From: an uncultured virus (IMG/VR IMGVR_UViG_3300042544_003275)
Lineage: Duplodnaviria; Heunggongvirae; Uroviricota; Caudoviricetes
DNA: 64,000 nt
Strand: one strand, 5' to 3'
Virus record (IMG/VR): IMGVR_UViG_3300042544_003275
The translations under genes were made by a program, and so were the position numbers. Shown here piece by piece: positions 10,090-50,042 of this stretch. Each line of letters starts with the position of its first letter. The stretch's first letter is position 1. The notes beneath the pieces were generated by a model. It was not told the DNA's origin. It did not search any database and saw only the letters and a program-made list of their open reading frames with translations.

Positions 10090-10119
10090 CAAAAGGAAGA
10101 AAACTTTTTTAATATATAC
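10090..10119 (+). promoter_or_regulatory. putative phage-type promoter AAAAGGAAGAA..TTTAATATATA
   Basis: Same motif recurs at ~25557 and ~37121 upstream of tRNA units. Confidence 0.5.
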
Positions 10120-10135
10120 ACATACAATAAAACAT

Positions 10136-10208
10136 TGTGGGATGGAGCAGTTGGTAGCTCGCAAGGCTCATAACCTTGAGGTCGTCCGTTCGAGTCGGGC
10201 TCCCGCTA
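10136..10208 (+). tRNA. tRNA-Met(CAT), initiator-like
   Basis: Cloverleaf, loop CTCATAA, 1:72 mismatch. Confidence 0.85.
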
Positions 10209-10294: not shown

Positions 10295-10326
10295 TTTGGT
10301 AGATTGAAAAAGTCTACTTATATTTG
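10295..10326 (+). promoter_or_regulatory. Bacteroidota-type sigma70 promoter for leader 1
   Basis: TTTG...TATATTTG (-33/-7 consensus). Confidence 0.7.
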
Positions 10327-10362: not shown

Positions 10363-10437
10363 ATGACAACAATTTCTACATATTATTATGAGGTCGAGAG
10401 CAAAAGCTCCGTCAGACGAGTAGTGATTATGTCGTAA
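10363..10437 (+). CDS. attenuator leader peptide 1 (MTTISTYYYEVESKSSVRRVVIMS)
   Basis: 24-aa ORF with TAT-TAT-TAT-GAG-GTC-GAG ahead of terminator and Tyr/Glu tRNAs. Confidence 0.8.
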   Translation: MTTISTYYYEVESKSSVRRVVIMS

Positions 10438-10462
10438 TTGAAAAATATTATATAAACACTTC

Positions 10463-10494
10463 AACCCAGTCTGACTTATCAGACTGGGTTTTTT
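10463..10494 (+). terminator. attenuator terminator 1
   Basis: AACCCAGTCTGA-ctta-TCAGACTGGGTT + T tract; 5' arm complementary to GTCAGAC in leader. Confidence 0.85.
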
Positions 10495-11641: not shown

Positions 11642-11722
11642 ATGAAAAATTTAAATAACATATCAACAGCAATAATCGGAGGCGGCGCGGGAGCGAGAGT
11701 CACTGGCTGGATTATGTTGTAA
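11642..11722 (+). CDS. attenuator leader peptide 2 (MKNLNNISTAIIGGGAGARVTGWIML)
   Basis: 26-aa ORF with GCA-ATA-ATC-GGA-GGC-GGC-GCG-GGA-GCG ahead of terminator and Ile/Gly/Ala tRNAs. Confidence 0.8.
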   Translation: MKNLNNISTAIIGGGAGARVTGWIML

Positions 11723-11745
11723 TTTTTTATTAAAAGAATTAAACG

Positions 11746-11777
11746 AAACCCAGTCAATTATTTGACTGGGTTTTTTT
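11746..11777 (+). terminator. attenuator terminator 2
   Basis: AAACCCAGTCAA-ttat-TTGACTGGGTTT + T tract; CCAGTCA can pair with leader TGGCTGG. Confidence 0.85.
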
Positions 11778-24030: not shown

Positions 24031-25382
24031 AACATGTAAGAAATTACAAATCTTTTGTTAAAGAGATACACAAACAAGTTCCAATTATAGAAAAACAAAT
24101 ATTCTCAGATTTTTCTAATTCAATTTGGGATATGAGTCTAAGATCATCAATCTTTACAAATGATGAAAAAGAATTCATTAAAGAAAATTTAATAAGTTAT
24201 AAAATTGATTTATTAAAAGAAGAATTTGGTATTAAAGATTTCTTTCAAACGGTATATGATAATGGTAAGAAAGTTGGTGGTAAATTATTCTCTACTATAA
24301 AAGAAAAACTTCTTAAAATAAAAGAAGGAATGAAATCTTTGATTTCTGGTGTTGTTAAATTCTTTGAGTCTATTATTAAAAATCTTTTTAATATAAGTGA
24401 AAGAAATGTTAAAAATATAACTACTCAATTTAAATCACCAATTGATAAAAAAATAGTTGAATTAATAACTCAAAAGAAAATTGATAAAGAAGATTTGAAA
24501 TCGGATTTAGGTAATGTAAAACAAACTACAGAATTCTTAAAAGAAAAATTTGTGTCTTCTTTCAATAAACAGGTTGAAACAGTTGATGATAAAGTTATTT
24601 CAGATGCAGAAAAAGAAGTTGCTAATATAGAAGATGAATTAAAGTTAGAATCATTTGATATACTTAAAACTTTCTACTCAGTTAATGAAGATTTTAAAGT
24701 TGGTGATATGGTTTCTTACACAAGAGATAATGGTGAGAAAGCTCAAAAAGAGATTGTTAAAATTGATGGTGAAACAATAACTTTCAAAGATAAAGAAGGT
24801 AATGAGTTTACTAAAAAATCTGATGAAGTTAAAGCTGTTGATAAAGTATCTACTAAAATATTAGATGCTAAAGATTGGTTTATGAAATGGTTTTTAGATA
24901 TGAAACAAACTTCACCACCAGAAGAAGGTAAAACTAAATGGTGGATGAAACTAATTTTAAAAGTAATTATGTTATTACTTTCTCCTATGAAAATGTTGTT
25001 AAAAACTACAATTAATTTTATTTCTAAAAATGCGTTAAAAGGATTGTCCAACTTTGTTAAATCATTAAATGGACCCGGATTATTTGAGTTTACTACTTTA
25101 GGTGCAATTTTAATAGGAATTCCTAATTTGATAGATGCTCCTGCAAAAATTATATTTACTCAATTTGGAGCATCTCAATTAGAAGAACCTTGGGACTTAG
25201 TATTCAAATTACTATCTAAATTAATTTTAGATATATCTGGGATGGATATGGTTATTAAAGTATTTGGTGTGATATGTTTAATACTTGCATTAGAAGGAAT
25301 TATTAGTTCATACCTATCAAAGTCCGGTGAAAAGGTAGAAGATACTAAACAAAATGTTCAACCAGCAGCACCAGTTTCTTAA
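24027..25382 (+). CDS. hypothetical protein with C-terminal TM segments (candidate virion internal protein)
   Basis: MKHVRNYKSFVKE N-terminus, helical, hydrophobic C-terminal third. Confidence 0.65.
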   Translation: MKHVRNYKSFVKEIHKQVPIIEKQIFSDFSNSIWDMSLRSSIFTNDEKEFIKENLISYKIDLLKEEFGIKDFFQTVYDNGKKVGGKLFSTIKEKLLKIKEGMKSLISGVVKFFESIIKNLFNISERNVKNITTQFKSPIDKKIVELITQKKIDKEDLKSDLGNVKQTTEFLKEKFVSSFNKQVETVDDKVISDAEKEVANIEDELKLESFDILKTFYSVNEDFKVGDMVSYTRDNGEKAQKEIVKIDGETITFKDKEGNEFTKKSDEVKAVDKVSTKILDAKDWFMKWFLDMKQTSPPEEGKTKWWMKLILKVIMLLLSPMKMLLKTTINFISKNALKGLSNFVKSLNGPGLFEFTTLGAILIGIPNLIDAPAKIIFTQFGASQLEEPWDLVFKLLSKLILDISGMDMVIKVFGVICLILALEGIISSYLSKSGEKVEDTKQNVQPAAPVS

Positions 25383-25400
25383 AAGATAATATAAAATAAA

Positions 25401-25585
25401 TTTGGTGAAATGTAAATAACACCGTATATTTGTAGAACAATTGAGAGAGGCAACGATTCAGATACAACTCTTGATTGTTTTTACATTTTATTTTATAAAA
25501 AATTAGGTAGAATTAAAACTTTTTACTAATTTTGTATAAAATAAGAACAAAACAACAAAAGGAAGAATAACTTTTTAATATATAC
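25401..25585 (+). promoter_or_regulatory. tandem promoters upstream of leader 3
   Basis: TTTG..TATATTTG, TTAGG..TAATTTTG, and GGAAGAA..TAATATATA. Confidence 0.6.
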
Positions 25586-25589
25586 AACA

Positions 25590-25700
25590 ATGAGAACAAT
25601 GAATTTAAATATGAACATTAATACACTGACAGTGGTGAATAATACGTTATGTATTAGACCATCTGAGGGTTTTGTCATATCTAAACGATTTGTTAGTTAA
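25590..25700 (+). CDS. attenuator leader peptide 3 (MRTMNLNMNINTLTVVNNTLCIRPSEGFVISKRFVS)
   Basis: First 23 residues use only M,R,T,N,L,I,V,C, the amino acids of the downstream tRNA array. Confidence 0.85.
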   Translation: MRTMNLNMNINTLTVVNNTLCIRPSEGFVISKRFVS

Positions 25701-25735
25701 CATGGAATAATAACAAATTAAATAAAGGATAATCG

Positions 25736-25767
25736 AAACCCTCAGTCTAAAAACTGAGGGTTTTTTT
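25736..25767 (+). terminator. attenuator terminator 3
   Basis: AAACCCTCAGT-ctaaaa-ACTGAGGGTTT + T tract; leader contains CTGAGGGTTTTG. Confidence 0.9.
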
Positions 25768-25782
25768 ATGTCTAAAAAATTT

Positions 25783-25856
25783 GGGATAGTAGCTACAATG
25801 GTCAGAGCAATCGCCTGTTAAGCGAAAGGTTGAAGGTTCGAGTCCTTCCTATCCCG
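25783..25856 (+). tRNA. tRNA-Asn(GTT)
   Basis: Loop CTGTTAA, G73. Confidence 0.9.
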
Positions 25857-25863
25857 CAAACAA

Positions 25864-25949
25864 CGGTAGGTACCCGAGCGGTCTTCAGGGACTAGTCTGA
25901 TACACTAGGTGACGTAATCACAACGTGGGTTCAAATCCCACCCTACCGA
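25864..25949 (+). tRNA. tRNA-Ile(GAT) with long variable arm
   Basis: CTAGT-CTGATAC-ACTAG then GTGA-cgtaa-TCAC arm. Confidence 0.7.
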
Positions 25950-25955
25950 CTAAAT

Positions 25956-26027
25956 GGCCCCTTCGTCCAATGGACAGGACGTCGCTCTTCTAAAGCGAAG
26001 ATACTGGTTCGAATCCAGTAGGGGTTA
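25956..26027 (+). tRNA. tRNA-Arg(TCT)
   Basis: Loop CTTCTAA. Confidence 0.9.
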
Positions 26028-26042
26028 CTAAAAAATAAATAT

Positions 26043-26116
26043 TCTCCTGTAGCTCAGTTGGTTAGAGCATCTGACTGTTAATCAGAGGGTCGCTGGTTCG
26101 AGTCCAGCCGGGAGAG
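26043..26116 (+). tRNA. tRNA-Asn(GTT)
   Basis: Canonical cloverleaf. Confidence 0.95.
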
Positions 26117-26121
26117 CAAAT

Positions 26122-26202
26122 GTCGAAGTGGTGGAATGGTAGACACGCTAACCTTAGGAGTTAGTACCAAACGGTGTGTGGGTTCGAGCCCCACCTTCGA
26201 TA
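26122..26202 (+). tRNA. tRNA-Leu(TAG)
   Basis: Loop CTTAGGA, variable arm. Confidence 0.9.
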
Positions 26203-26208
26203 CAAAAA

Positions 26209-26283
26209 GGGTCTGTAGTACTAAATGAGCAAAACTTCTGCCTGTTAAGCAGAGAGATGTCGGTTCGAATCCGACTGGACCCG
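26209..26283 (+). tRNA. tRNA-Asn(GTT), irregular D arm
   Basis: TCTGC-CTGTTAA-GCAGA. Confidence 0.75.
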
Positions 26284-26292
26284 CAAAAAAAT

Positions 26293-26365
26293 AGTCTTGT
26301 AGCTCAATCGGGGGAGCGCCACTGTTACATAGTGGAGGGAGTCGGATCGTAACCGACCAGGACTA
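26293..26365 (+). tRNA. tRNA-Val(TAC)
   Basis: CCACT-GTTACAT-AGTGG; T loop ATCGTAA. Confidence 0.8.
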
Positions 26366-26371
26366 CAAAAC

Positions 26372-26444
26372 TGTCGATTAGCTCATTTGGTAGAGCACTT
26401 GTCTGATACACAAGAGGTGGTGGGATCGTAACCCGCATCGACAA
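26372..26444 (+). tRNA. tRNA-Ile(GAT)
   Basis: CTTGT-CTGATAC-ACAAG; T loop ATCGTAA. Confidence 0.85.
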
Positions 26445-26452
26445 CTAAAAAT

Positions 26453-26535
26453 GGTCCCGTGGCCGAGTGGTGTAGAAATACGGGAGGTAGTGGATTGCAA
26501 ACTCACTCACGCTGGTTCGAATCCAGCCGGGACCT
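26453..26535 (+). tRNA. tRNA-Cys(GCA), enlarged D loop
   Basis: Loop TTGCAAA, U73. Confidence 0.75.
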
Positions 26536-26541
26536 CAAAAT

Positions 26542-26613
26542 TGTCTTGTAGCTCAATGGGAGAGCACTTCCTTGACATGGAAGAGGTAGTGGGATCGTTA
26601 CCCACCAGGACAA
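26542..26613 (+). tRNA. tRNA-Val(GAC)
   Basis: CTTCC-TTGACAT-GGAAG; T loop ATCGTTA. Confidence 0.85.
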
Positions 26614-26619
26614 CAACAA

Positions 26620-26692
26620 GCCTTTGTAGCTCAGCAGGTAGAGCAACTCCCTTGTAAGGAGAAGGTCGCAGGTTCGATTCCTGTCAAAGGCT
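26620..26692 (+). tRNA. tRNA-Thr(TGT)
   Basis: Loop CTTGTAA. Confidence 0.9.
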
Positions 26693-26696
26693 CAAT

Positions 26697-26811
26697 AATG
26701 GATGGTGATTAAGAGTGTTACTTCGTGAAATGGTATACACATTTGTCTTAAAAACAAACTTTTGAAGGTTCAAGTCCTTCAGTAAAATCACTCTTTAGAC
26801 TTTCCTCCATT
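26697..26811 (+). ncRNA. tRNA-Leu(TAA)-like core embedded in an extended stem
   Basis: D, anticodon (CTTAAAA) and T arms closed by AAGAGTG-TTACT / AGTAA-aat-CACTCTT. Confidence 0.55.
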
Positions 26812-26815
26812 ATAT

Positions 26816-26905
26816 GCTCCAGTGGCGAAACTGGTTGAAACGCGTGAGATTTAAAATCTCATACCCTCGTGGAAAACGTTGTGGGTTCAAATCCCACCTG
26901 GAGTA
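26816..26905 (+). tRNA. tRNA-Leu(TAA)
   Basis: TGAGA-TTTAAAA-TCTCA, variable arm. Confidence 0.9.
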
Positions 26906-26915
26906 CTAAATATAA

Positions 26916-26988
26916 GCAGTTATCGTATAGTCGGTGATTACACGTCCTTGGTACGGACGAGACCCCGGTTCGATTCCGGGTATCTGCT
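26916..26988 (+). tRNA. tRNA-Thr(GGT)
   Basis: CGTCC-TTGGTAC-GGACG. Confidence 0.9.
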
Positions 26989-26997
26989 CAAATAAAT

Positions 26998-27078
26998 GCC
27001 TAAATGGTGGAATGGTAGACACGATCGTTTAAGGGGCGATTGCTGAAAGGTGTGAGAGTTCGAGTCTCTCTTTAGGTA
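26998..27078 (+). tRNA. tRNA-Leu(AAG)
   Basis: ATCGT-TTAAGGG-GCGAT, Leu-type D and variable arms. Confidence 0.8.
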
Positions 27079-27110
27079 CTGAAGTGAAACGAAAGTTCAC
27101 TACAAAATAT

Positions 27111-27180
27111 GCCGCGGCTTAGTGGAAAAGGACATTGGCTCATATCCGATGTTAAGTGAGTTCGAACCTCATACGCGGTA
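27111..27180 (+). tRNA. tRNA with CAT anticodon (Met or Ile2), degenerate D arm
   Basis: ATTGG-CTCATAT-CCGAT, T arm present. Confidence 0.55.
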
Positions 27181-27185
27181 CAAAT

Positions 27186-27266
27186 GTCAGAATGGTGGAA
27201 TGGTATACACACTGGTTTCAAAAGCCAGCGCCTAACGGTATGAGAGTTCAAGTCTCTCTTCTGATA
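27186..27266 (+). tRNA. tRNA-Leu(CAA)
   Basis: CTGGT-TTCAAAA-GCCAG. Confidence 0.9.
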
Positions 27267-27288
27267 CTCGATAAAAAAACCAATAAAA

Positions 27289-27498
27289 ATGGAAAAGAAT
27301 GAAGTAAAAAAATCGTTGTACAAACAAAATCCAAAAGCAACATTTAAGTTTATCAGAAAAGGTGTAGCTTATTACACTACTGAAATTCGCGAAGGTCAAA
27401 CATTTCAAATATTTTTTGAAATTCCAGTAATTGATATGGGAGATGCCGACTTTGAAAGTACAATGGATGCTAAACTATTAATTAGATGGATAGTCTAA
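27289..27498 (+). CDS. hypothetical protein
   Basis: 69-aa ORF ending the tRNA unit before a bidirectional terminator. Confidence 0.65.
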   Translation: MEKNEVKKSLYKQNPKATFKFIRKGVAYYTTEIREGQTFQIFFEIPVIDMGDADFESTMDAKLLIRWIV

Positions 27499-28291: not shown

Positions 28292-29764
28292 ATGAAAAAT
28301 ATTGTAACAAGAATCGCACCTTCACCCACTGCTCCATTTTCTCATCTTGGAAATTTGAGAACATTATTATATAACTACTTCCTTGCTAAAAGACACGGTG
28401 GTAAATTCATTGTTCGTTTAGAAGATACGGATCGTGATCGTTATACACCATCTTTCTTAACATATTTTAAGGATATGTGTGACTGGCTTGGTATAGTACC
28501 AGATGCTTCTTATTGGAATCCAGATCCAACTATTGGTTCTTTTGTACAATCAGAAAGAGATTATTCTGATAAAGTTAATTACCTAATTGACGCTGGGTTG
28601 GCTTATTATGCTTTTGATACTAAAGATGATTTAGATGCTCTTAAATCAAAGGGTCTTAAATATGACGCAACTACAAGAATGAGTATGAACAACTCTTTAG
28701 TTATGTCTAAAGATGATTTTGACTCAACGATGAAAAATGGTACTCCATATGTTATTCGTTTTGCGGTAAATCCTGATGTTGATATCACTTTTGATGATGC
28801 TATTTTAGGTACAATTACTATTAGTACAAATACTCTTGATGATAAAGTTTTAATTAAGTCAAATGGTATTGGTTCTTATCATCTTTGTAATGTTTGTGAC
28901 GACCATGATATGGGTGTCTCTCATGTTCTTAGAGGTAACGAGTGGGTAAACTCAACACCTTTTCACATCTTAATGTATAAGGCTTTTGGTTGGGATGTTC
29001 CAACATTCTCTCACTTACCATTGATTATGAATCCAGATGGTAAAGGAAAGTTATCTAAAAGAACTGCTGCTAAATATGGTATTCCAATTGCACCAATTGG
29101 TTACTTTGATGATAATGGTGATTATAACAAAGGTTGGAAAGACCTTGGATATGACCCTAAGGCTTTTATGAACGCACTTGCTTTAATTGGATGGAATCCT
29201 GGTGGTGATGTTGAAATGATGTCTATGAAAGATATGATTGATTCTTTCTCTTTAGATAGAGTTCATAAATCAGGAGCTCGTTTTGATATGGATAAAGCAA
29301 AGTGGATTAACGCTCATCATTTGAGAACAACTCCTAATTCTTGTTTGAGACCATTTATCAATATTAAAGACGATAGATATTCTGATGATAAATTAGATAT
29401 GATTATCGATTTGGCGAAAGAAAGATCTGAATTCAAATCTGACCTGAACACTGTTGTTGATTTATTCTTTGATAACCCTGTTATTACAGATAGAAAGAAG
29501 TTAGATGATAACTATACTTCTGTTATGAGTGACTTTGGTAACAACATTGATAATATTGATTTCACATCAACAGACACGATTAAATCGTCTATCGTAGATA
29601 TCTGTGATAGATTAGGTGTTAAGATTGGTAAAGTGATGCCAGGATTGAGAATGGCACTTGTGGGTGGTATTTCTGGACCAGATTTAATGACCACAATGTT
29701 AATCTTGGATAAGAAAGAAACTAAGAAAAGAATATCACTATCGACAAGTTTACTACATATTTAA
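28292..29764 (+). CDS. gltX: glutamyl-tRNA synthetase
   Basis: TRIAPSPT, HLGN, RLEDTD, LRGNEW, KLSKR. Confidence 0.95.
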   Translation: MKNIVTRIAPSPTAPFSHLGNLRTLLYNYFLAKRHGGKFIVRLEDTDRDRYTPSFLTYFKDMCDWLGIVPDASYWNPDPTIGSFVQSERDYSDKVNYLIDAGLAYYAFDTKDDLDALKSKGLKYDATTRMSMNNSLVMSKDDFDSTMKNGTPYVIRFAVNPDVDITFDDAILGTITISTNTLDDKVLIKSNGIGSYHLCNVCDDHDMGVSHVLRGNEWVNSTPFHILMYKAFGWDVPTFSHLPLIMNPDGKGKLSKRTAAKYGIPIAPIGYFDDNGDYNKGWKDLGYDPKAFMNALALIGWNPGGDVEMMSMKDMIDSFSLDRVHKSGARFDMDKAKWINAHHLRTTPNSCLRPFINIKDDRYSDDKLDMIIDLAKERSEFKSDLNTVVDLFFDNPVITDRKKLDDNYTSVMSDFGNNIDNIDFTSTDTIKSSIVDICDRLGVKIGKVMPGLRMALVGGISGPDLMTTMLILDKKETKKRISLSTSLLHI

Positions 29765-37156: not shown

Positions 37157-37252
37157 ATGAAAACAATTAACGTAAATATCGCACAAGTTAACCCGCAACC
37201 TCAGGATCAGGATTCTAAGGAAGTGACTAACTATGTCTTTACAATAAGTTAA
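37157..37252 (+). CDS. attenuator leader peptide 4 (MKTINVNIAQVNPQPQDQDSKEVTNYVFTIS)
   Basis: PQPQDQD run ahead of terminator and Pro/Asp/Gln tRNAs. Confidence 0.85.
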   Translation: MKTINVNIAQVNPQPQDQDSKEVTNYVFTIS

Positions 37253-37275
37253 TAAAAACATTAAACGATTTGTAT

Positions 37276-37315
37276 AAACCCAGTTAGTCTTTGATTAACT
37301 GGGTTTTTTTTTTTT
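37276..37315 (+). terminator. attenuator terminator 4
   Basis: AAACCCAGTTAGTC-ttt-GATTAACTGGGTTT + T tract; leader GACTAACT complements AGTTAGTC. Confidence 0.9.
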
Positions 37316-37803: not shown

Positions 37804-38049
37804 ATGTTTGTATTCAGAAGAAGTATAACAAATGAAGAATGTGAAGTAGTCGAATTAAAAGGTTCATTAGAAGGTCTTAACTATCGTTTGGATAGTTTAA
37901 TTAATATAAGTAACAGACCTGATAATAGAAGTGACTTAACTGATGAAATAAACCGTGTTAAAAACGAAATTGAAATAAAAGAAATAAAACTAAAAGAAAT
38001 GAGAACATTAGTACAATTCCAGCAACAACAAATTAATCGAACAGATTGA
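37804..38049 (+). CDS. 81-aa coiled-coil ORF whose last 16 codons form leader 5
   Basis: MFVFRRS.. in frame with MRTLVQFQQQQINRTD. Confidence 0.5.
   Translation: MFVFRRSITNEECEVVELKGSLEGLNYRLDSLINISNRPDNRSDLTDEINRVKNEIEIKEIKLKEMRTLVQFQQQQINRTD
37999..38049 (+). CDS. attenuator leader peptide 5 (MRTLVQFQQQQINRTD)
   Basis: Five Gln codons, followed by terminator and two tRNA-Gln. Confidence 0.75.
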   Translation: MRTLVQFQQQQINRTD

Positions 38050-38077
38050 TAATGGAATAATATTGTGTAAACTTTAT

Positions 38078-38111
38078 AAACCCTATTCAATCTTTTGGAT
38101 AGGGTTTTTTT
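38078..38111 (+). terminator. attenuator terminator 5
   Basis: AAACCCTATTCAA-tctt-TTGGATAGGGTTT + T tract. Confidence 0.85.
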
Positions 38112-48557: not shown

Positions 48558-48815
48558 TTTGGCAGATTGAAATAGTCTCCATATCTTTGTATTCACAATA
48601 AAAGATTAAAAATATACTTGGATTGAAAAATTCCAGTGGTTGGAAAACCTACTCGCAAAGTAAAGACTAATTGTTGGTATATTTTTTATAAAAGATTTGG
48701 TAGATTAAAATAAAATACTTATCTTTGTAAAACAAATCAGAAACGTCTGATATAAGTTAAACAAAAAATCTTTACAAAAGATTTGGTAGATTGAAAAAGT
48801 TTACTTATCTTTGTA
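48558..48815 (+). promoter_or_regulatory. three tandem Bacteroidota-type promoters
   Basis: TTTGG(C/T)AGATT...TATCTTTGTA at ~48558, ~48696 and ~48782. Confidence 0.7.
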
Positions 48816-48849: not shown

Positions 48850-48922
48850 CGCGGAGTAGAGAAGTTGGAATCTCGTCAGGCTCATAACCTGAAGGTCACT
48901 GGTTCGAGTCCAGTCTCCGCTA
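48850..48922 (+). tRNA. tRNA-Met(CAT), initiator-like
   Basis: C1:U72 mismatch, loop CTCATAA. Confidence 0.9.
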
Positions 48923-48944
48923 CTAAACAGTTCTCAACGGAGAA

Positions 48945-49860
48945 CAACGTTCTTTGAAGTATTAAAAATTTTACTGAAACTCGACTTCGGTCTTAGTTCT
49001 TCGGAACAGAGTGTGTAAGTAAAGGGCGGCTTATAGTCCTTAAATAAACCTCGAAAGGGGGATAAAGTGGATACAAATGCTAATTGTATCTGCGTCTTGA
49101 GAGTTCTTCGGAACAATTGAGGTCGAGTAAGCAAGTGGGACACCACAAGTTCTGAGTAGTCGAGGGTAACACTGTAGACCAAATGAGTTTGTGACCGGGC
49201 AATTGTAGATTGTTTGGTTGACCTCGGAAGAGGAATAGGAATAACCCATAGGAATTATGTAAGAAATAAAGACTCACCGGTTTTTACTATTGCGAGTTCC
49301 AACTTAAAAGGTGTCTTAAAGTTGAAAGACAATCAGTTGTACAGGTGGTGCTGTTAATTGACACTAATCTCCCTACCAAGGGAGTAGATAAACCGAAAGG
49401 TGAGTCGTGGTGAAGATATCTTGAAGAGTTGTGATGGAGGCATCACACGGAGTAGTCCAGTATTCTTGAGACCAAAAGTCATGAGAGCTGAGAGGTGACC
49501 ACTACTTCGACATAATCTACTAGCACTAAATTTCTAACTGTTAATTGGAAACATTTAAAAATAAGAAATCAAAAGTGTTACCTAGTTACTGATGAAAGGT
49601 ACCTACTTAGTCGTGAGTGTTCACGGCCACTGAAGCTCGAAAGGCCGATGTGATTTCATCGAAAAACTTATAGAGGGTCGAACCTCGAATCAGCTCGCAA
49701 GGTTGAATAAGCGGATTAAATGGAGAGTAAACAGTAACTCAAGGAGTGGTTAGTCTAACTAACCGGTACTGACAGAATACTACTCAAAAGGTAGTGGATA
49801 AGTTTGGGAAATCATAATCCAACTAAAGATCTGTCGTATAGGATGTAATCTCAGTCCTTT
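48945..49860 (+). ncRNA. large structured non-coding RNA (GOLLD-like candidate)
   Basis: ~900 nt, raised GC, no credible ORF, many UUCG/GNRA hairpins, flanked by tRNAs. Confidence 0.6.
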
Positions 49861-49867
49861 TTTATAT

Positions 49868-49956
49868 GGCCTGTTCGTCTAGGGGAATACTTTCATAGAA
49901 AGTAGGATGGATATCTCTTCAGATATCAGACATTGGTTCGAATCCAATACAGGCTA
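49868..49956 (+). tRNA. tRNA-Glu-like with D-loop hairpin insertion and 8-nt anticodon loop
   Basis: GGCCTGT/ACAGGCT acceptor, GATAT-CTCTTCAG-ATATC. Confidence 0.55.
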
Positions 49957-50042
49957 CAAGTTTTCGTAGTGGTTAACTTTCCCTTTAATTAGGGGGTCTA
50001 CTGAAATAAGTAAGTAGGGTGGTTACCAAACACCACACAAAT

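Follow-up and report, generated by a model that had tools for sequence, protein, structure and literature searches.

A probable leader-peptide attenuator before a multi-isotype tRNA array in an uncultured Caudoviricetes virus

Known attenuators and the phage locus

The closest described counterparts of the element discussed here are the enterobacterial amino-acid leaders, in which a short open reading frame (ORF) with regulatory codons is combined with an intrinsic terminator and with an exclusive pairing between RNA segments 2 and 3. Leaders of this kind include trpL, hisL, leuL, and pheL; among the multivalent ones, thrL carries Thr and Ile codons, and ilvL, the leader of ilvGMEDA, carries Ile, Leu, and Val codons. 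Attenuation of an aminoacyl-tRNA synthetase gene is seen with the pheM leader of pheST, which responds to how much charged cognate tRNA is available. Another type of control is the T-box, to which uncharged tRNA binds directly; neither a ribosome nor an ORF is involved. To our knowledge, leader-peptide attenuation, a textbook mechanism, has been described for the genes of amino-acid biosynthesis and for a small number of synthetase genes, but not for tRNA genes. The subject of this study is a 64,000-nt stretch of AT-rich DNA with 33 tRNA genes (the window) from a giant lake phage, the uncultured virus IMGVR_UViG_3300042544_003275 (Caudoviricetes), in which a short leader ORF at 25590..25700 and an intrinsic terminator at 25735..25767 stand before a tRNA array at 25783..27267. 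Judged from the sequence, these parts quite likely form a ribosome-mediated (leader-peptide) transcription attenuator that gates the phage tRNA array and senses decoding supply.

A leader-peptide model with 1:2, 2:3, and 3:4 pairings is laid out for pheL in a part of PMC3082878, and parts of PMC3082878 and PMC1183508 hold that a ribosome stalled at the regulatory codons favors read-through. The phage leader shares with the enterobacterial leaders the short ORF with regulatory codons, the intrinsic terminator, and the exclusive 2:3 pairing. However, those leaders gate biosynthetic enzymes, whereas the phage leader would gate tRNA genes and carries eight amino acids. It also differs in that no conserved 1:2 hairpin was found, that the stop codon lies beyond segment 2, and that the untranslated RNA is predicted to read through. 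The likeness to pheM and pheST is that a gene of the translation apparatus would be under leader-peptide attenuation, but there one amino acid is sensed and the product is a protein, while the product of the phage unit would be tRNA, giving direct feedback on the sensed quantity. A T-box, too, senses a specific tRNA state and controls an intrinsic terminator upstream of translation-related genes. A T-box or other riboswitch was rejected as an explanation, with no Rfam match in the window at the gathering score or in 25400-27400 at E<=1. Likewise, no Rfam leader family was found in the window at the gathering score, nor in 25400-27400 at E<=1, and the only leader-type Rfam row in 25400-27400 was rnk_leader, at 22.5 bits against a cut-off of 50.

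Phage tRNAs have also been considered as replacements for lost host tRNAs. A part of PMC13096335 describes a defense system that cleaves tRNA-Tyr and a phage that amplifies anti-defense loci; the phage array would be alike in restoring decoding, but in that part of the paper no cis-acting sensor that switches tRNA genes is described. In the main text of the huge-phage paper PMC7162821, the strings "attenuat" and "leader" occur 0 times, and the literature searched, with subscription journals outside its coverage, held no account of leader-peptide control of tRNA genes. E. coli pheV was tried as a bacterial precedent and rejected, as its promoter lies directly before the tRNA; by eye, the yqgA-pheV gap (~105 nt) holds no Phe-rich leader ORF and no terminator hairpin. 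What is new, then, is the application of a known mechanism to a new gene class, the tRNA genes.

The leader, its array, and their relatives

The leader ORF, like the other parts of the unit, the four sister units, and the upstream motifs described below, lies on the + strand. It has 36 codons followed by TAA, encodes MRTMNLNMNINTLTVVNNTLCIRPSEGFVISKRFVS, and is predicted to be translated. Codons 2-23 (25593..25658) are the putative regulatory codons and specify R, T, M, N, L, I, V, and C only, and residues 1-23 draw on all of C, I, L, M, N, R, T, and V and on nothing else. A preliminary description of this DNA had limited residues 1-23 to these eight amino acids, with which the ORF translation and the residue count agree, and had matched two AGA codons to a TCT anticodon. 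The codon listing bears this out for residues 1-23, where Arg is encoded by AGA both times (codons 2 and 23); outside this stretch Arg occurs once more, as CGA at codon 33. Most leader codons are the phage's commonest, but GTG (twice), CTG, and ACG are used as well, each of which makes up 3-4% of its codon family.

The eight amino acids make up a fraction of 0.421 of the 15,534 residues in 47 ORFs of at least 150 amino acids. With this composition as the base, the probability that 22 residues all fall within the set is 5.4e-9, and it is 1.9e-9 when all eight are required, which gives the chance of a set match that the preliminary description had left to be computed. An empirical count agrees: among the 706 ATG frames of the window that stay open for at least 23 codons, one has its first 23 residues within the set, and this is the leader itself. 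The next-longest runs, of 20 and 16, are probably those that start within the leader itself, at ATG codons 4 and 8. Residue 23 was picked as the limit post hoc; this limit coincides with the start of the antiterminator strand. Since the odds are ~2e-9 and one of 706 frames qualifies, the leader alphabet is not a product of chance.

The array at 25783..27267 holds 15 standard tRNA genes together with a Cys(GCA)-like gene and a CAT tRNA gene. ARAGORN at default settings and Rfam at the gathering score alike find 15 tRNAs for six amino acids: three Asn(gtt), two Ile(gat), one Arg(tct), five Leu (anticodons tag, taa, taa, aag, and caa), two Val, and two Thr. The other two genes are non-canonical and appear with relaxed ARAGORN only. 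The CAT tRNA gene (27108-27183) scores 23.1 bits in Rfam against a cut-off of 29, and the Cys(GCA)-like element (26453-26536) has no tRNA match in Rfam. In relatives, 14 ordinary Cys(gca) tRNAs take the place of the latter in the array, and its anticodon and T arms can be aligned with theirs. The D arm of the Cys(GCA)-like element is ~10 nt larger than normal, and this enlargement is conserved, with compensating differences, in the two closest named relatives (L001 2643-2742 and L002 2621-2727). Because the arms align with the Cys(gca) tRNAs of relatives and the enlarged D arm is conserved, the gene is not junk. Thus, six isotypes of the list first drawn up for this array stand on standard calls, while Cys and CAT/Met appear at relaxed settings only, and the exact eight-of-eight match of amino acids depends on these two non-canonical genes.

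Some features of the array are unusual in themselves. The 87-nt tRNA at 25864-25950 has a long variable arm (type II) together with the anticodon GAT, which reads Ile codons. The type II shape is normally that of Leu, Ser, or Tyr tRNAs. The same 5' sequence as that of this tRNA starts the array in many relatives. Also, two adjoining tRNAs carry the anticodon TAA, one of 74 nt with a short arm (26716-26789) and one of 91 nt with a long, Leu-type arm (26816-26906). A 184-nt metatranscriptome contig (X15) covers 25721-25879, from the terminator into tRNA-Asn, with 10 differences, and contigs identical to the Cys(GCA)-like gene occur in X15 and X19; DNA carry-over is possible in both cases. Contigs from the four metatranscriptome runs show neither transcription, transcript ends, nor read-through.

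The RNA elements of the unit are as follows. The intrinsic terminator (25735..25767) has a 12-bp stem, a 6-nt loop, and a run of seven T, with the stem-loop at 25735-25764. The antiterminator strand, or segment 2, is CTGAGGGTTTTG at 25663..25674; it lies in codons 25-29, within reach of a translating ribosome, and its pairing excludes the terminator. Its partner is segment 3, CGAAACCCTCAG at 25734..25745, which also pairs with the 3' arm of the terminator. All 12 positions of 25663-25674 pair with 25734-25745, so the 12 bp claimed earlier with the terminator's 5' arm are there, made up of 11 Watson-Crick pairs and one U-G. The duplex of segments 2 and 3 has an energy of -17.4 kcal/mol (RNAduplex) compared to -6.3 +/- 2.0 in shuffles, and 0 of 300 shuffles is as low. 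Only 18 nt (25765-25782) separate the terminator stem from tRNA-Asn, and a scan with the sigma-70 consensus only found no promoter-like site between the terminator and the first tRNA. The ORF also contains a small hairpin, TAATAC-GTTAT-GTATTA (25640..25656), that is kept in relatives.

The design is widespread, as a 20-nt leader motif alone matched 76 metagenome loci and 7 IMG/VR loci. A first DNA pattern, ATGAATTTAAATATG, was dropped as too unspecific, with tRNAs within 1500 nt downstream in 1 of the 120 loci returned. The closest named relatives are LR745206.1 (634,780 bp; L001) and LR756502.1 (642,428 bp; L002), both unannotated. Complete orthologous leader peptides number 73, of which 44 are distinct. 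The leader ATG is invariant in 61 of 61 aligned relatives. None of the 46 distinct ORFs has lost the frame: the distance from the ATG to the anchor is 42, 45, or 48 nt, and indels are of 3 or 6 nt. The residues VVN[N/I]TL are set by the search motif and were excluded from the alphabet counts. From codon 2 up to the motif, 599 of 616 residues in the 46 distinct leaders fall within the eight-letter set, and the 17 that do not are all Lys at position 2 or 3. The share of possible nonsynonymous single-base changes that would preserve the set is 46%, so 599/616 points to purifying selection on the leader alphabet. At the same time the order of residues shuffles within the fixed alphabet (for example, MNLNMNINTLT, NNTNMMNLTLN, and MNLNITNLNLTM), as is expected of regulatory codons rather than of a folded peptide.

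The same relatives provide a test of the RNA pairings. Across 61 sequences, 87.8% of cells in the antiterminator helix are paired compared to 26-56% when the helix is slid by 1-3 columns; 6 of the 12 pairs are changed on both sides, which amounts to 66 cells, and such values were matched in 0 of 500 shuffles. The terminator helix of the 61 relatives has 98.2% of its cells paired, and both bases are changed in 4 of its pairs. The terminator comes in three types (CCCTCAG, CCCGAAC, and CCCAGAT), each with a matching copy inside the ORF, and a switch of type changes the encoded peptide from PSEGF to TAGSGC or PESGL. The outer antiterminator pairs co-vary from UA to CG where the 3' arm of the terminator is just U, and therefore the signal is specific to the 2:3 helix. 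All 46 of the distinct leaders have the hairpin around the loop GTTAT, a possible pause site; its stem has 6-8 bp and comes in four co-varying versions.

Downstream of these leaders, a census was made of the 40 relatives' arrays with at least 1900 nt of downstream sequence. Thr, Asn, Val, and Leu tRNAs are found in all 40, Ile(gat) in 35, Arg(tct) in 32, Met in 22, and Cys in 16, and the sole named foreign isotype is Lys, in one array. The arrays vary in order and copy number, with the isotypes kept. In L002 (1782-1983) and also in L137, L140, L177, and L204, the first tRNA starts ~170-200 nt after the terminator; the insert in L002 holds a small ORF, MEPELEELIIREEM... An attenuator at these five loci would gate the inserted stretch as well.

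Each tRNA sub-array has its own matched leader, both in the window, which has five sub-arrays, and in seven related huge-phage genomes. The four sister units are a leader MTTISTYYYEVES... with its terminator before Tyr and Glu tRNAs (10363..10490), a leader MKNLNNISTAIIGGGAGAR... with its terminator before Ile(tat), Gly, and Ala tRNAs (11642..11774), a leader ...VNPQPQDQD... with its terminator before Pro and Asp tRNAs, with Gln further on (37157..37306), and, at the end of a longer ORF, a leader MRTLVQFQQQQINRTD with its terminator before two Gln tRNAs (37999..38107), which reads ...FQQQQINRTD. Two extra leader types occur in LR745206.1 and LR756502.1: ...THKNFSKSHKWF... before His, Phe, Trp, and Lys tRNAs and ...SKSSSRSSS... 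before Arg(acg) and Ser tRNAs. In all 19 units of the window and these two genomes, the tRNAs come straight after a terminator, and the leader ORF ends 18-35 nt short of that terminator. By their codons, the seven units read N/I/R(AGA)/L/V/T/C/M; H/F/W/K; R(CGN)/S; E/Y; I(ATA)/G/A; P/D; and Q. The match extends to the level of the codon. In the big unit of the window, AGA and ATT in the leader stand before Arg(tct) and Ile(gat) in the array, while the Arg/Ser leaders of relatives have CGC, CGT, and CGA before Arg(acg) and Arg(tcg), and the Ile/Gly/Ala leaders have ATA before Ile(tat).

When leaders and arrays were permuted and scored by the share of leader codons readable by array anticodons (default ARAGORN tRNAs), the cognate pairing was the single best of 120 in the window, of 5040 in LR745206.1, and of 5040 in LR756502.1, and the cognate leader was top-scoring for 5 of 5, 7 of 7, and 7 of 7 arrays, respectively. 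With an uncurated pipeline run on further IMG/VR genomes (G001-G005), the cognate pairing ranked 2/5040, 1/120, 1/24, and 1/120 in G001, G003, G004, and G005 and 1/120 in the window; in G002 the pipeline found one unit only. Because of the kinship between these genomes, they do not count as independent trials but as replicates of some seven independent leader types.

Proposed switching model and rival explanations

The proposed sequence of events is as follows. Transcription would begin upstream of the leader, and since the terminator alone separates the leader from the first tRNA, the array would be made by read-through only. If codons 2-23 are decoded fast, the ribosome would advance to codons 24-33 and cover segment 2. 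If segment 2 is covered at the time when segments 3 and 4 are transcribed, the terminator (25735-25764) would form and transcription would stop. A ribosome waiting at an Asn, Thr, Leu, Val, Ile, Arg(AGA), Cys, or Met codon would instead leave segment 2 free to pair with segment 3, so that no terminator forms and the tRNA genes are transcribed; the leader would in this way act as the multivalent OR gate proposed in the preliminary description. The tRNA products would read the codons that caused the wait, and therefore a negative feedback loop would be closed. In nature the shortage could be caused by a codon-usage mismatch with the host, by the loss or cleavage of host tRNAs, or by starvation.

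Folding with the ribosome modeled as a 28-nt mask is in part consistent with such a switch. At equilibrium, the terminator probability of the window's leader falls from 0.97 to 0.1-0.3 when the A-site is at codons 10-18. However, just 2 of the 19 units drop below 0.8 at any ribosome position, namely the big leaders of the window and L002, and therefore the switch must be kinetic. The equilibrium scan was replaced by a co-transcriptional snapshot of the RNA ending at the terminator loop. In this snapshot, the 5' arm of the terminator is paired upstream (0.4-0.99) with the ribosome on early codons, and the upstream pairing is lost (0.0-0.4) with the ribosome on distal codons, in 19 of 19 units. 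In folds of the upstream sequence only, segment 2 is itself paired upstream with a mean probability of 0.72. Read-through would be controlled by stalling and by the relative timing of ribosome and polymerase.

Not all of the evidence points toward this model, and the following results weigh against it. Besides the small number of units that switch at equilibrium, a ribosome waiting at the stop codon, which in the eight-amino-acid leader family lies 24 nt beyond segment 2, leaves segment 2 free (0.87-0.94 in that family), and the untranslated RNA favors the antiterminator (0.86-0.94, same family). Because both of these states leave segment 2 free, the outcome without a stall hangs on timing: termination would need a ribosome over codons 24-33 while segments 3 and 4 are made, or else refolding behind the ribosome. 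The first pairing of the classic model is not clearly supported either. RNAalifold on 61 sequences returned the terminator alone and no 1:2 helix, and of 60 sequences just 6 have a 1:2 duplex stronger than that of 95% of shuffles; the window's own 1:2 duplex (-4.4 kcal/mol) falls short of this. In the G001-G005 genomes, 10 of 21 units have an antiterminator that beats 95% of shuffles; strong ones are confined to the eight-amino-acid and His/Phe/Trp/Lys families, and the Glu/Tyr, Pro/Asp, and Gln units have weak ones. As to content, residues 24-36 of the leader hold P, S, E, G, F, and K, and Lys, for which the array has no tRNA, is at leader position 2 in 16 of 46 leaders. In the permutations every leader scores 0.2-0.56 against the big array, since the leaders share a T/N/I-rich N-terminus. 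Lastly, loci L200, L208, and L155 have a leader peptide identical to that of L213 and L169 and arrays without Ile, Arg, and Cys tRNAs. The earlier expectation that leader content would change with the array across relatives thus holds between the seven paralogous units and fails for recent losses; leader content follows the array between paralogous units, but not recent array losses.

These results leave room for other readings of the same parts. The switch could report overall translation, with an untranslated or poorly translated leader reading through, any active translation turning the array off, and the codon match arising as a by-product of feedback by the phage's own tRNAs or of shared ancestry. 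Such a general sensor would account for the ribosome-free snapshot folds, which favor the antiterminator at 0.86-0.94, and for the M-[KRT]-T/N start and T/N/I-rich N-terminus that all leaders share. It needs no unit-specific alphabet, however, and seven leader types match their arrays down to AGA versus CGN and ATT versus ATA; the alphabet also appears to be under purifying selection, at 599/616 compared to the 46% expected. A general sensor is therefore improbable, if the nearest competitor. Less probable again is a functional micro-protein, or a small RNA that ends at the terminator, with the array made by constitutive leakage and the match incidental. The peptide is conserved and hydrophobic, a terminated leader RNA would be a discrete product of 180-330 nt, and attenuator RNAs and leader peptides that act in trans are described for Sinorhizobium in parts of PMC7298713 and PMC7968998. 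Against a functional product of this kind, the residue order shuffles while the alphabet is kept, the C-terminal half of the peptide is set by the RNA pairing and differs entirely from one terminator type to another (PSEGF, TAGSGC, PESGL), and six quite different leader peptides sit likewise before other arrays.

One could also attribute the whole arrangement to chance, with an AT-rich genome giving short ORFs rich in N, I, L, and T and with the terminator of the upstream gene happening to precede the array. The eight amino acids do make up 42% of the phage proteome, the residue-23 cut was made post hoc, and the tRNA calls behind two of the eight isotypes are weak. Nevertheless, the composition odds of 1.9e-9 and the single frame in 706 oppose this, as do the permutations, the co-variation, and the kept frame. 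From the end of the upstream gene, at 25382, it is 350 nt to the terminator, with promoter-like sites between, and for this reason the idea that the terminator belongs to that gene was rejected. Chance is thus very hard to credit. The leader-peptide attenuator, as first suggested in the preliminary description, keeps its support from the co-variation of 25663-25674 with the terminator's 5' arm, from the frame and alphabet kept in 46 leaders, and from the six other matched leader types.

If the attenuator works as proposed, tRNA genes would be regulated by the reading speed of the ribosome, a logic not known to have been described for any tRNA gene, and the leader, with its eight amino acids, would surpass all known multivalent attenuators in breadth. 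It would mean that huge phages gauge how specific codons are being decoded and provide the matching tRNAs as needed, which would answer the long-open question of when and why phage tRNAs are expressed. It would also offer a testable read-out of which host tRNAs are limiting during infection, including under defenses that target tRNA. More tentatively, and with the balance somewhat against it, the tRNA set for all 20 amino acids in about seven leader-gated units might be a distributed, self-correcting monitor of decoding. Such a monitor would sense host tRNAs that are missing, outnumbered, or cut by a defense, replace those, and shut off on recovery. The seven paralogous units are, in addition, a natural experiment in the retargeting of a sensor.

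Upstream motifs and neighboring genes

Upstream of the leader lie two promoter-like sites and a further motif. Site P1 (25401..25432) is of the Bacteroidota type, with TTTG, 20 nt, and TATATTTG. The pattern TTTG-N17-22-TAnnTTTG occurs 16 times in the window compared to 4.3 expected, a count reached in 0 of 100 shuffles, and the extended form of P1 also precedes other tRNA units, at 10295 and 37067. Site P2 (25503..25534), read from the sequence, is a TTAG variant followed by TAATTTTG; the arrangement recurs in L001 at ~1606-1642, and P2 could function as a promoter. The motif TTTTAATATATA (25573..25584) lies 5 nt before the leader ATG. With up to 1 mismatch it has 22 matches in the window compared to 6.5 expected, for example at 10107, 25573, 32454 (- strand), 37138, and 38281. 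Many copies stand ~5-30 nt before ORF starts, and one is 18 nt before tRNA-Met at 10136. This placement suggests a phage-specific promoter with very short 5' leaders; a start-context signal is another candidate role for the motif.

Between P1 and P2, at ~25443-25487, is a stem-loop followed by a T run, with a counterpart in L001 at ~1553-1596. Its loop, GGCAACGATTCAGATACAA, is identical in LR745206.1, where the stem differs, and L002 is without the stem-loop.

About 1 kb past the array, 28292-29764 encodes a class I Glu/Gln-type aminoacyl-tRNA synthetase (PF00749 at 237 bits, plus the anticodon-binding PF19269). No Glu-rich leader was noticed upstream of this gene, in a region that was not analyzed. 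Further along, a GOLLD RNA (RF02032, 278.7 bits) is found at 49448-49857, with tRNA-Met (48850-48923) on one side and a tRNA-Ser-like gene (49868-49957) on the other. A promoter-like repeat of the form TTTGG[TC]AGATT...TATCTTTG occurs in three tandem copies upstream of the GOLLD RNA, at 48558, 48696, and 48782.

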